Shown here in pieces: positions 8,801-61,777 of a stretch of DNA of 64,000 nucleotides. The notes under the pieces were generated by a model that did no database searches, had not been told where the DNA came from, and saw nothing but the letters and a program-made list of their open reading frames with translations. The position numbers and the translations under genes were made by a program. The first letter of the stretch is position 1. Every line of letters starts with the position of its first letter. This DNA comes from Octopus vulgaris (lineage: Eukaryota). The DNA lies in assembly GCA_951406725.2 (NCBI GenBank), contig OX597818.1:65162001-65226000 (forward strand), written 5' to 3'.

Positions 8801-9084
8801 TTTCGCAGTTTTTCATTGGCAGTTTTTGATTAGAAGATTGAACAAATTTTCTGACGATACACTTTCACGTACATTAGAATTTAATTTATATTTTTCTAGA
8901 TAAAGTGTGGCATCCTACTTCTCACCGGACTATATAGCGCTCAGGTAAAAATAAATAAATTAAATTAAAAAAGCACGTGCTTACGGCCAAGCATTTTGCC
9001 AGGTAGATATTTTCTGTCTCAGATATTTCGATTTTAGAGTAGTTTCAACAAAAAATGTGTACGTTATTTTAGCCATATGCCCAC

Positions 9085-9155
9085 GGGCGTATGGCGTACT
9101 GATTAAGAGCGAGGGCTACTCACCCAAAGATTCCAAGTTCGATTCCAGGTAGTTA

Positions 9156-9205
<50 letters not shown>

Positions 9206-9385
9206 GTAACAACAACATCGAAAAATACCTTAGGTTCGAAACTTCCCCCAAGACACCTGAAGAAGGCTGGAGGGTATATCAGCCGAAACGTTGTGTTAAC
9301 AACAAACAAGATGAGGACAAATATCTGTCAAATATAAATAATGTAAATAATGTACATAATTCCTCATCTCTTAAATATAGAACTG
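9085..9385 (+). mobile_element. SINE family E: tRNA-like head + (AAT)n + hammerhead-containing tail
   Basis: Head gggcgtatggcgtactgattaagagc..gttcgattcc (A/B boxes), AAT tract about 9160-9203, tail shared with 2164-2380, 32765-33115 and 33116-33208. Confidence 0.85.
9252..9297 (+). ncRNA. Minimal type I hammerhead ribozyme motif (PLE-type)
   Basis: GACAC-CTGAAGA-A-GGCTG(10-nt loop)CAGCC-GAAAC-GTT-GTGTT: stem I GACAC/GTGTT, 5-bp stem II, palindromic AACGTT stem III, GUU cleavage triplet. Confidence 0.7.
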
Positions 9386-9899
9386 AAAAAAATGTGTGTC
9401 GGAAATATTTCCCCCAACTTCTCGATTCGTATATTTTATTCATTGTGTCATGAACATGGTGAAAGGGTGTGTGTGTGTGTGTGAATAAACTGTTCATTTT
9501 ATCATTTCCCTGATTAAATTGCTCAAAATTATGTTATTTTTAGTCAAAAAGCTATTAATTGCTTCTTCTAAAATAAATGTTTTGCTGAAGATTACATTTT
9601 CTCCAACTACTGCTTGTAAAAATATGTTTGTTTACGTTGGAATTATTTATGAGGCGTATTTATAACATTCCCTTATTTATAAGAGATAGAAATAACAACC
9701 GCAAAATTTTGTCCGGTAACTGTAGAATTCTCCACCACCCACCACCAGACCAAAAGAAAAAAAGAGATAATGCAGACAACTAAAGTACGCGCTACTTCAG
9801 CGAAGTGTCACGTCGTTTCCCTTGGTAATCTGCAGTAAGGAGGAGTGACATAGAACAACTTTCCAAATAGAAATAACAAAGAGAACAACAAAAATATTT

Positions 9900-32409: not shown

Positions 32410-32764
32410 ATGCTTGCGAGTGTGAAGGTATTTCCAACAATACATGCTTTACTTAATAACGATTGTCAGTAACGTATTTACACAGATCTCAATAAGGTAA
32501 CTCCGAAATGTCTTAGGAACCCTATTTGGGTCGACTAAAACTATAATGATTACTTTTGCAGCAGCTCCCTACACTCATTTATATCAGTGGACACAACCGT
32601 ATCTATGATGTCCTCCTCTTCTAGCACCTTGTCCACATTGGTAATATCAGGTTCTTTTTTAGTTTTATGGTTAGCCTCTAAATTAAAGTGCCTTAAACCC
32701 TACAACTGATAATTCCCCGTCAAATTATCCAGTATGATTTTGACACCAAATTATCAGTTTATAT

Positions 32765-32999
32765 AGTTCTATATTTAAGAGATGATAATTATGTACATTA
32801 TTTACATTAGTTACATTTCACGGATATTTGTCCTCATCTTGTTTGTTGTTAATACACCGTTTCGTCTGATATGCACTCCAACATTCATCAGGTGTCTTGG
32901 GTTAATTTTTGAACCTGGGTTCTCATTCTAAAGGTATTTTTTGATATTATCATAATAATAATTATTATTATTATTTTAATTATAATTATAATTATAATA

Positions 33000-33035
<36 letters not shown>

Positions 33036-33208
33036 TATTCAGATCACAGTCTGGAATCGAACTCGGAATCTTGAGGTTAGTTGCCCGCGTTCTTAATCAC
33101 TATGCCATATGCCCCCAAAACACCTGATGAAGACTGGATGGTATATCAGCCAAAACGTTGTGTTAACAAGGTGAGGACAAATATCCGTCAAATATAAATA
33201 ACGTAAAT
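32765..33208 (-). mobile_element. SINE family E, full copy (minus, 32765-33115) plus inverted partial tail (plus, 33116-33208), flanked by a 16-bp direct repeat
   Basis: Minus: tRNA head, AAT tract, gacacCTGATGA..GAAAC tail. Plus: aacacCTGATGAagactggatggtatatcagcc-aaaacgttgtgtt. aattatcagtttatat at 32749-32764 and 33209-33224. Confidence 0.85.
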
Positions 33209-33737
33209 AATTATCAGTTTATATTGTTATATTTTAGATTGTCTGAGAATGAACGTAAAATTATTTGAAACGTATGTATTGAAAGGATTGGTTATGTCTG
33301 TGTTTGCTTAAAATTTGTCCAACATCACGAAACTACAGTCACATTTTCGAATGCGCATGGGATCTACATACACCATATTTTCATGAGCAACACTCTTCGA
33401 AGAATGTAGGAATAATTTGCCCTGTTAGTATTATAAATATTTGTAGAAGAAACTATACGGTCACACGTGAAAAGTAAATTTGAAAAGGGATTAGAATGAA
33501 CATGCGATTGTAGGATTTGCAGATGAACAATTATTTCAAAGATTGCACGAGGTTACAGCATTGCATATATGGGTGAGTATTTGTAAAATATAAAGCAGTA
33601 TGTATAGTCAACATGAGAAAATACTCTTCTGTGAGTTGTTTTTGTTTTGTTTTCATTTTTTTGCTTACCCGATTTCATGGAAATAGGTATTAAGTCTATG
33701 GCACTCTATATTATGCAAGTCATCCATAAAAATAATC

Positions 33738-44765: not shown

Positions 44766-44970
44766 GTATGGCGTAGTGGTTAAGGGAGCGGGATGCTAAC
44801 ACTAAGATTCCGATTGCGATTCAGGCAGTGACCTGAATAATGATAAACATATTAATAATAATAATAATAATAATATCTAAAAAATGCCTCAGGAATGAGA
44901 ACTCAGGTAGGAAATTTCCCCAGGATAACTGATGAAAGCGAAACGTCCAATGCGAAACGTCCAATGAGGC
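44766..44970 (+). mobile_element. SINE family E, 3'-truncated at the hammerhead
   Basis: gtatggcgtagtggttaag head, AAT tract, aaaatgcctcaggaatgagaac..aactgatgaa, then tandem gcgaaacgtccaat x2. Confidence 0.75.
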
Positions 44971-59409: not shown

Positions 59410-59463
<54 letters not shown>

Positions 59464-59582
59464 AATCAAGGAACGGCCATAATAGGCCATTCACCCACTA
59501 GAAATAACAGCCAAAAGCTTTAACCGCAAAATAACGTCAATTCCGTAAACCAGGAGAAAATCAAAAAAACATTTACCCTGTA

Positions 59583-59689
59583 ATTTCTTAGACGATGCAC
59601 CGTTTCATCTACTGTTTAATGGAAAACTAACCTGATTAAATTAAATCAAGCCAATCTACCATAGGCCCTTAGATTCATCAGTAAGAAAT
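59583..59689 (-). ncRNA. Type I hammerhead ribozyme, copy 1
   Basis: Reverse complement of 60996-61102; GUC cleavage C corresponds to position 59591. Confidence 0.85.
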
Positions 59690-60073
59690 AGCCAAGCCGG
59701 AACAGATATTTTTCACGAGGCATTCTCGTTGCTACCTCGTCAATATCTGACCTAAAATTTTCAAATCGTCGCACTCGCGCCAAATTTATCGGCAGCAAAT
59801 AAATATAAGCCGCCGATTCCATTACGGAATTAACCAGAAAATTCATAATTAATCAATATAGGGTGGCAAAAAAAATTTTGTAGAATTCTTTTGCCACCAG
59901 CGGCCTAGTGGGAAAAAATTAAATAGTCATAAACCATTTTTAAGTTCAACATCACAATCAAGGAACGGCCATAATAGGCCATTCACCCACTAGAAATAAC
60001 AGCCAAAAGCTTTAACCGCAAAATAACGTCAATTCCGTAAACCAGGAGAAAATTAAAAAACATTTACCCTGTA

Positions 60074-60180
60074 ATTTCTTAGACGATGCACCGTTTCATC
60101 TACTGTTTAATGGAAAACTAACCTGATTAAATTAAATCAAGCCAATCTACCATAGGCCCTTAGATTCATCAGTAAGAAAT
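60074..60180 (-). ncRNA. Type I hammerhead ribozyme, copy 2
   Basis: Same motif, 491 bp from copy 1. Confidence 0.85.
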
Positions 60181-60564
60181 AGCCAAGCCGGAACAGATAT
60201 TTTTCACGAGGCATTCTCGTTGCTACCTCGTCAATATCTGACCTAAAATTTTCAAATCGTCGCACTCGCGCCAAATTTATCGGCAGCAAATAAATATAAG
60301 CCGCCGATTCCATTACGGAATTAACCAGAAAATTCATAATTAATCCATATAGGGTGGCAAAAAAAATTTTGTAGAATTCTTTTGCCACCAGCGGCCTAGT
60401 GGGAAAAAATTAAATAGTCATAAACCATTTTTAAGTTCAACATCACAATCAAGGAACGGCCATAATAGGCCATTCACCCACTAGAAATAACAGCCAAAAG
60501 CTTTAACCGCAAAATAACGTCAATTCCGTAAACCAGGAGAAAATTAAAAAACATTTACCCTGTA

Positions 60565-60671
60565 ATTTCTTAGACGATGCACCGTTTCATCTACTGTTTA
60601 ATGGAAAACTAACCTGATTAAATTAAATCAAGCCAATCTACCATAGGCCCTTAGATTCATCAGTAAGAAAT
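60565..60671 (-). ncRNA. Type I hammerhead ribozyme, copy 3
   Basis: Same motif, 491 bp from copy 2. Confidence 0.85.
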
Positions 60672-60995
60672 AGCCAAGCCGGAACAGATATTTTTCACGA
60701 GGCATTCTCGTTGCTACCTCGTCAATATCTGACCTAAAATTTTCAAATCGTCGCACTCGCGCCAAATTTATCGGCAGCAAATAAATATAAGCCGCCGATT
60801 CCATTACGGATTTTTTTGCCACCCTATATTGATTAATTATGAATTTTCTGGTTAATTCCGTAATGGAATCAGCGGCTTATATTTATTTGCTGCCGATAAA
60901 TTTGGCGCGAGTGCGACGATTTGAAAATTTTAGGTCAGATATTGACGAGGTAGCAACGAGAATGCCTCGTGAAAAATATCTGTTCCGGCTTGGCT

Positions 60996-61102
60996 ATTTC
61001 TTACTGATGAATCTAAGGGCCTATGGTAGATTGGCTTGATTTAATTTAATCAGGTTAGTTTTCCATTAAACAGTAGATGAAACGGTGCATCGTCTAAGAA
61101 AT
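60996..61102 (+). ncRNA. Type I hammerhead ribozyme, copy 4
   Basis: Stem I ATTTCTTA(60996-61003)/TAAGAAAT(61095-61102); CTGATGA 61004-61010; stem II ATCTA/TAGAT (61011-15/61074-78); GAAA 61079-82; stem III ACGGTGCATCGT; GTC 61092-94. Confidence 0.87.
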
Positions 61103-61323
61103 TACAAGGTAAATGTTTTTTAATTTTCTCCTGGTTTACGGAATTGACGTTATTTTGCGGTTAAAGCTTTTGGCTGTTATTTCTAGTGGGTGAATGGCCT
61201 ATTATGGCCGTTCCTTGATTGTGATGTTGAACTTAAAAATGGTTTATGACTATTTAATTTTTTCCCACTAGGCCGCTGGTGGCAAAAGAATTCTACAAAA
61301 TTTTTTTTGCCACCCTATATTGA

Positions 61324-61354
<31 letters not shown>

Positions 61355-61366
61355 CATACACACATA

Positions 61367-61777
61367 GGCGCAGGAGTGGCTGTGTAATAATTAGTTTACT
61401 TACCAAACACATGGTCCCGGGTTCAGTCCCACTGCGTGGCACCTTGGTTAAGTGTGTGTTCTACTGTTGCTTCAGGCTGATCAAAACCTTGTGAGTGAAT
61501 TTGGTAGACAGAAACAGAAGAAGCCCATTATATAATATACTTATGTGTGTTTGTGTGTGTGTCTGTGTATGTGTGTTTTTTTTGCCCCCCCCCCCCCCCC
61601 ATCATCGCTAGAATGTTGGTGTGTTTACGTTCCCGTATGCTAGCGGTTCGGCAATAGAGACCGATAGAATAAGCACTAAAGTTACAATGAATATGTCCCG
61701 GGGTCGTTTTGTTCAACTAAAGTCGGTGCTCCTGCATGGCCATAGTCCAAGAACTGAAACCAGGAAAAGAATAAAAG

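Follow-up and report, generated by a model that had tools for sequence, protein, structure and literature searches.

The insertion at positions 32749-33224 of the window (the whole 64-kb stretch of Octopus vulgaris DNA analysed here) likely arose long ago, when the end repeat (pLTR) belonging to a protein-coding Penelope-like element (PLE) was inserted once, with its two arms lying back to back. We put a probability of roughly 0.8 on this Penelope pLTR insertion having arisen by priming of both cut target strands, which probably used a single RNA and two fixed sites on it, some 35-40 nt from each other. Were such priming general in PLE integration, it would account together for the inverted pLTR, the tail found on one side, and the target-site duplication (TSD).

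The repeat, here called family E, is present at this locus in two abutting pieces: a full minus-strand copy (main arm, 32765-33115) and, attached to its head, a partial tail on the plus strand (33116-33208). This arrangement was first described in an earlier note on this DNA and is confirmed by the sequence. The 16-bp target duplication reported there is exact as well: the 16-mer AATTATCAGTTTATAT has two matches in the window and no others, at 32749 and 33209, forming the left (32749-32764) and right (33209-33224) TSD copies. On the minus strand, the main arm is one whole family E pLTR and reads from a tRNA-like head (33039-33115, called from its sequence and from the tRNA-Arg alignment of a younger head) through an (AAT)n spacer (32946-33038) that separates the head from the ORF start, then a hammerhead-like motif, to the PLE tail, whose terminus is the distal 3′ end (site A). 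Sequence inspection places an A-box-like motif of the head at 33097-33107 and a B-box-like motif at 33053-33064. A motif scan identified the decayed, minimal type I hammerhead-like motif at 32851-32897 (CUGAUGA at 32891, stem II, and GAAAC), and the tail, an extension between 3′ ends B and A carried by the main arm only, spans 32765-32802. The decayed start of a Penelope ORF, detected by tblastn (32765-32926, ATG at 32926-32924), overlaps both the hammerhead and the tail, and the parts of the main arm are also found 3′ of the ORF in loci L101-L130 and L163-L192.

The inverted partial arm, on the plus strand and without the tail, is a 78%-identical copy of the main arm's 3′ part. It begins just 5′ of the hammerhead, 9 nt 5′ of its CUGAUGA core (33125), and extends as far as site B, the proximal 3′ end, which leaves it without about 38 nt that the main arm has at its own 3′ end. 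The 3′ ends of both arms face outward. The head-to-head junction lies in a C run (33113-33117) compatible with both the complement of the head and the start of the partial arm, with about 3 nt of microhomology. Both hammerheads have decayed, with AAAA in place of GAAA in the partial arm and substitutions near the cleavage triplet in the main arm, whose head is about 6 nt shorter than the usual family E start. The main and partial arms differ from the family majority at 15/155 and 5/75 sites, respectively. By itself, the locus is textbook PLE architecture; an inverted pLTR, a tail on one end, and a TSD have all been published for PLEs.

In the left flank, a 21-bp imperfect inverted repeat (32704-32759) covers the first 11 nt of the TSD, so the target was possibly a hairpin. 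No empty orthologous site was found among sequencing runs of related organisms. In three such organisms, flank contigs extend 21-26 nt into the arms, below the 31-letter bridging threshold, a weak hint that the insertion is common to them. Across four related-organism runs, loose contig ends cluster at 32765 and 32803, which correspond to sites A and B.

As far as its sequence tells, family E, head included, is to be read as the pLTR of an autonomous-type Penelope element with an RT and a GIY-YIG endonuclease, because the head trails the ORF, tandems recur, and the N-terminus matches. In the genome assembly searched (2.8 Gb, 227 contigs), an endonuclease-only query gave 40 matches; the head lies within 120 nt 3′ of the endonuclease end in 24 of the 30 loci fetched, and family E parts lie further downstream in three more. 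The parent is laid out as RT, GIY-YIG-type C-terminus, about 25 nt, head, (AAT)n, ATG, hammerhead, tail, and ORF again. Partial tandems of endonuclease, UTR, head, (AAT)n, hammerhead, tail, and ORF are present at L200, L205, and L208, and the tail continues in frame into the ORF at L146, L152, and L159; on the evidence of these tandem loci and the in-frame continuation, the pLTR is formed by a partial tandem and overlaps the ORF start. Residues 18-50 of an intact 847-aa PLE protein (P0003) match the window's main arm (tblastn, E 3e-5), while at L204 residues 19-130 of the 847-aa homolog align over the hammerhead, the tail, and the onward ORF (46%, E 7e-35). The family E body and tail make up the first ~55 codons of the ORF, and at L051 the upstream stretch beyond the head is the end of an RT-endonuclease reading frame.

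The coding capacity of the parent is represented by a 569-aa open RT and endonuclease frame at L143, whose RVT_1 match (E 2.7e-6) falls just under the Pfam cut-off and which has 2914 homologs at E<=1e-20 among 7990 scored. Most of these homologs carry an RT and some carry PF01541 GIY-YIG; in one of them, P0069, both RVT_1 and GIY-YIG exceed the cut-off. The parent's own C-terminus has no Pfam GIY-YIG match, so this domain is assigned by homology, and the resulting single ORF with an RT followed by GIY-YIG is that of an EN+ PLE. The Penelope/Poseidon clade label is our assumption, made from motifs; a PDB sequence search gave only weak RT matches. No intact parent copy was found, every RT match long enough for inspection being broken, and a distant PLE query returned the same family again in 30/30 loci. 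Median divergence is 6.5% among 60 solo copies. Forty evenly spaced 10-kb stretches contain two family E insertions and one ORF fragment, and the window contains four insertions, which together place the copy number roughly on the order of 10^4. Two other PLE families in this genome have intact-looking RT-GIY-YIG frames (L441 and L442, 850-869 aa; L443 and L444, 1312 aa) and many near-identical copies, often in opposed pairs a few kb apart; judging from these sequences, both families were probably active recently.

The earlier note had held that family E is mobilised by PLEs. PLE enzymes are indeed its likely agent, but it is not a separate SINE, since its head and tail are those of the parent's pLTR; "PLE-mobilised SINE" is therefore a misnomer for a repeat that is the parent's own pLTR and overlaps the ORF start, even if solo copies may behave like SINEs. 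We consider it improbable that family E is an independent tRNA-derived SINE with a captured PLE tail, mobilised in trans. Its head, repeat, and partner-like tail do follow SINE anatomy, a tRNA-derived head with A and B boxes is present, 65/70 copies begin at that head, solo copies are far more numerous than ORF-linked ones, a Pol III SINE-like repeat with a hammerhead has been published (Schistosoma SM-alpha, as described in PMC6765202), and an ancient SINE insertion in the parent's 3′ UTR could have supplied the head. Nevertheless, the head belongs to the parent (24/30) and sits in tandem units 5′ of the ORF start, the body and tail encode the ORF's start, and, by eye, the same variants occur in solo and ORF-linked copies. 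With its 3′ half coding, family E is neither non-coding nor separate from a partner with which only a 3′ tail is shared. The independent-SINE reading differs from the pLTR reading mainly in origin and name, and solo copies may also serve as sources.

The geometry of the family was assessed in a sample comprising the first 70, in genome order, of 156 head-pattern matches, taken blind to their flanks; loci from a junction query (L001-L030), pre-selected for the junction, served as a lead only and were left out of the counts. An inverted tail occurs within 800 nt upstream in 43/70 copies, in support of the PLE-type inverted geometry proposed in the earlier note, which had also suggested comparing inverted-tail frequencies with those of two other families. 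Under a single rule (450 nt, blastn), inverted tails were found in 42/70 family E copies as against 1/109 and 4/88 copies of two other abundant SINE-like repeats, S1 and S2, which may not be the families A and B of that note and are not necessarily LINE-mobilised. These controls were cut from L128 and from window positions 61367-61640 because a regex for other SINE heads found none in the window. Raw matches numbered 9 for S1, of which 8 were discarded for falling short of its 3′ end, and 20 for S2, where those discarded included 13 that were microsatellite only.

Family E copies terminate either at site A (distal) or at site B (about 35-40 nt proximal), and the two arms of an insertion rarely terminate at the same one. 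In the 38 two-armed insertions with both ends scorable (the other 32 of the 70 copies have one or no scorable end), the main/inverted combinations are A/B in 15, B/A in 22, A/A in 0, and B/B in 1; a tail of about 35 nt is thus present on exactly one arm in 37/38 and on both in none (Fisher P=1e-9). The A/B split was also seen, by eye, in 7 of 20 ORF-bearing loci, namely those with both ends visible. A TSD score of at least 9 was obtained for 24/38 two-armed insertions versus 2% of mismatched, cross-locus pairs. Family E accordingly displays what is expected of an EN+ PLE, an inverted 5′-truncated copy (43/70), a one-end 30-40-nt tail (37/38), and a TSD (24/38). Whereas the earlier note regarded the present locus as the best evidence for PLE mobilisation, the parent element and this family-wide one-sided tail provide much stronger evidence than the locus does.

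The same counts bear on whether the arms came together secondarily, by two independent insertions or a later rearrangement, which we regard as very improbable. PLEs are described as inserting close to their own copies (PMC6765202), the arms of the locus are just 78% alike with no private variant in common, and its empty site was not encountered in the runs searched. Against this, a single 16-bp TSD encloses both arms, TSDs in the family far exceed the 2% null, same-end pairs are nearly excluded, the arms are near-equally diverged (7-10%), and the geometry is rare among the control repeats. The single insertion event proposed earlier is therefore supported by the one TSD around both arms, by the TSDs of the family, and by the A/B exclusion.

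Arms of the same insertion also tend to share variants. In the 28 of 38 pairs with at least 30 shared sites, to which this test was limited, 21 private variants are shared over 3035 sites (0.69%), above all 1913 permutations (mean 0.22%, maximum 0.49%). Gene conversion between arms could be another source of such variants. Because the arms of the locus itself share 0/75 private variants, a single template is shown for the family and not for the locus.

Shared variants would equally be produced by self-priming, in which the first cDNA folds at a microhomology and copies its own tail into an inverted arm, as proposed earlier for PLE palindromes (PMC3846280). This route is feasible at the present locus, where the inverted arm is contained within the main arm, and it would also account for the fold-back copy of the head seen in 18/70 family E copies, a short copy that was probably made by folding back of the first cDNA. 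In 22/38 insertions, however, the inverted arm has tail sequence that is absent from the main arm, so these B/A inverted arms were not copied from it, and where self-priming is possible the inverted arm ends at site B instead of at the cDNA's end (15/15). The B/A class largely excludes self-priming as a general route, and we hold it to be an improbable origin of the inverted arm.

The window contains three further copies of family E. A second insertion at 9050-9395, with a TSD of about 11 bp and a main arm ending at site A, carries a stub of about 10 nt of the inverted site-B tail together with a fold-back head copy, and is the one-tail rule in miniature. Older, partial copies lie at 2161-2376 and 44767-44936; the former has no head, and at its (AAT)n spacer it follows on from a different retroelement's 3′ end. 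This spacer is often broken 3′ of the head by coding pieces of a further non-LTR element that resembles R4/Dong, as at L003, L006, L010, L026, and L048. The earlier note had further likened the locus to a retrozyme junction at 60810. The head-to-head geometry is the same, but the retrozyme has no sequence likeness to family E; it is set in (TA)n, where a TSD could not be read, and in unit coordinates 105 nt separate the ends of its arms. It belongs to a young two-armed tandem (59459-61330) of ~491-nt units with a hammerhead motif, the units being 99% identical.

In the preferred mechanism, two-site priming of a pLTR transcript, a dimeric RT-endonuclease would nick the two target strands 9-16 nt apart, and both strands would prime on one RNP, one at site A and the other at site B. 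One 3′-OH would be extended from site A to the 5′ end of the RNA, generating the main arm, and the other would copy from site B over 93 nt, generating the partial arm. The cDNA ends would then anneal via the C/G run, and repair would yield the 16-bp TSD. The RNA template's 5′ end is likely the tRNA-like head. In a less supported step, the template would be a short RNA whose synthesis, probably by Pol III, started at the A/B-box head; such short Pol III-type transcripts would let solo pLTRs spread in a SINE-like manner and outnumber copies joined to the ORF's end, as they do by about 13 to 1. One RNA, or two RNAs of one source on an asymmetric dimer, would fit the counts equally.

Several elements of this scheme have precedents in published work. 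For the Poseidon PLE in vitro, PMC11167929 describes cutting and extension of both target strands and RT beginning at two internal sites that bound a 30-40-nt tail; the start site was not seen to differ between strands there, which counts against the two-site scheme. The inverted 5′ copy, one-end tail, and TSDs of PLEs have been described with their origin left open (PMC8557442, PMC3846280), and the origin of the inverted or tandem structure and of the tail is called unresolved in PMC8557442 and PMC11167929. From the 37/38 one-tail rule and the shared variants, it is predicted that, on one RNP, each target strand is primed at a start site of its own.

The head itself no longer folds or scores as a tRNA, and neither ARAGORN (down to -ps60) nor Rfam detected a tRNA at the locus or in younger copies. 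In a comparison with 27 distinct tRNAs of 6 isotypes, a younger head aligned best to the genome's tRNA-Arg genes (z 9-9.8, above all 300 shuffles), which tentatively suggests tRNA-Arg as its source isotype. Similarly, Rfam found no hammerhead in the window or in two young copies, and the putative hammerhead of family E was recognized by inspection and folding from its core motifs, stem II, and a short stem I; both the head and the hammerhead were called by motif inspection combined, for the head, with alignment to the genome's tRNAs. By inspection, the hammerhead-like motif matches the min-HHR description given in PMC4209133. Hammerhead cleavage was considered as the source of the 5′ ends and rejected, since among 63 ORF-linked and 40 inverted arms the ends did not peak where the cut is predicted.

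Most 5′ ends lie at the head. Copies start about 14 nt 5′ of the A box in 65/70 cases, and in tRNA-type promoters Pol III is expected to start at about that distance; 65/70 match the parent's upstream sequence for no more than 9 nt past the head pattern, and 5/70 go further, into a conserved stretch. ORF-start junctions were tallied separately (78 junctions from 100 loci, with 20 loci lacking a passing N-terminal match): seven of the 78 reach the head's start, four stopping there and three reading on into the upstream copy. Read-through is more frequent in these ORF-bearing copies than in head-selected ones (3/7 vs 5/70, P=0.02). Because 3/7 ORF-bearing copies continue upstream, the head is not the sole RNA start, and long read-through templates also exist. 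A short hairpin at the head that stalls RT could take the place of a promoter start. In 49/78, ORF-bearing copies (L193-L222, L293-L362) stop within about 80 nt 5′ of the ORF junction, near site B of the upstream pLTR, and these frequent stops may mark RT stalling at a protein-bound site.

Furthermore, sense TTTT is absent from the 2700-nt majority sequence of the unit (84 segments, median depth 39), where synonymous shuffles expect 2.7 (P=0.03); GGGG is absent too, and single decayed copies do carry TTTT (three in the L143 frame). In two other PLE families of the genome, TTTT occurs 11 times over 2.55 kb and 9 times over 3.9 kb, no less often than their nulls predict, and a third PLE fragment has 2 versus 3.0 expected. 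A regex search found no A/B boxes near the ORF ends of the other PLE families in the genome. In one raw RNA run from a related organism, the two strands were covered to the same depth and starts did not accumulate at any point, a pattern that speaks neither for nor against Pol III. Taken from sequence features, Pol III transcription of family E from the head is at most suggested, and a tRNA-like promoter within the repeat likely spawns the SINE-like short copies. Known PLE pLTR promoters are of Pol II type, with TATA/Inr described in Pen2a (PMC3846280) and Inr/DPE in the D. virilis Penelope (PMC2377424). A more far-reaching version remains speculative and rather doubtful, namely that a captured tRNA gene replaced the Pol II promoter, that the 2.7-kb unit is transcribed entirely by Pol III, that solo pLTRs number in the tens of thousands, and that PLEs in general can integrate only by priming one RNA from both ends of the target, at two sites. 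If the mRNA were a Pol III product, cap-independent translation would be required, as is presumed for R2.

The less ordinary properties of family E are the A/B-box head in the pLTR, the lack of sense TTTT in the unit, and the one-tail rule. The literature searches turned up neither twin priming in PLEs nor any PLE with a tRNA-like head or Pol III transcription, and Repbase or Ohshima and Okada 1994, on octopus tRNA-derived retroposons, may already name the family. A tRNA-type promoter within the pLTR of a coding retroelement blurs the boundary between SINEs and autonomous elements, and it shows how SINE-like families can originate in their partner instead of alongside it. Part of the SINE annotation in such genomes would then be PLE.

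Among known systems, LINE-1 twin priming also involves priming of both target strands on the RNA and leaves an inversion inside one TSD. There the second primer anneals far inside and the segments barely overlap, whereas the starts in family E are fixed and within about 40 nt, so that two copies of the 3′ part result. Cassandra, Helenus, and Ajax likewise have a Pol III-type module, derived from a small RNA, in a terminal repeat; these are the elements of PMC10886601 and, unlike the family E parent, are non-autonomous LTR elements; Penelope has 0 occurrences in the accessible text of that paper. On the descriptions available, the schistosome alpha elements SM-alpha and Sj-alpha are the nearest precedents for a Pol III head with a hammerhead, being dispersed repeats in which a Pol III-type promoter is followed by a type I hammerhead (PMC6765202, PMC8490949). 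Unlike family E, they are non-coding, often tandem, and carry a canonical hammerhead, and the accessible portions of these papers describe no coding parent or inverted-arm insertion (PMC6765202, PMC8490949). Animal non-LTR retrozymes and non-autonomous PLE derivatives (bioRxiv 10.64898/2026.07.22.740005; PMC7229834) and MRC1-type elements (PMC8557442) resemble family E in being short, in bearing a hammerhead or hammerhead-like motif, and in being linked to PLE pLTRs, and all are presumably moved by PLE proteins. As described there, the retrozymes and PLE derivatives are tandem units without a tRNA head, whereas family E solo copies are monomers with the layout of the parent's pLTR; the locus has no head-to-tail array of the tandem non-coding hammerhead units that define non-LTR retrozymes. 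The nearest known systems, as far as the published accounts were accessible, are the endonuclease-bearing PLEs Poseidon_Ac of the green anole (PMC11167929) and Pen2a_Av of Adineta vaga (PMC3846280). Family E and its parent share with them an RT followed by a C-terminal GIY-YIG-type domain in ~850 aa, a pLTR overlapping the ORF start with a hammerhead (putative in family E) at that start, a one-end 30-40-nt tail, an inverted 5′ pLTR, two RT start sites, and TSDs of 8-16 bp at AT-rich targets. Unlike in these two systems as described, a tRNA-like A/B-box module followed by (AAT)n forms the beginning of the family E pLTR, and most insertions consist of the pLTR only.
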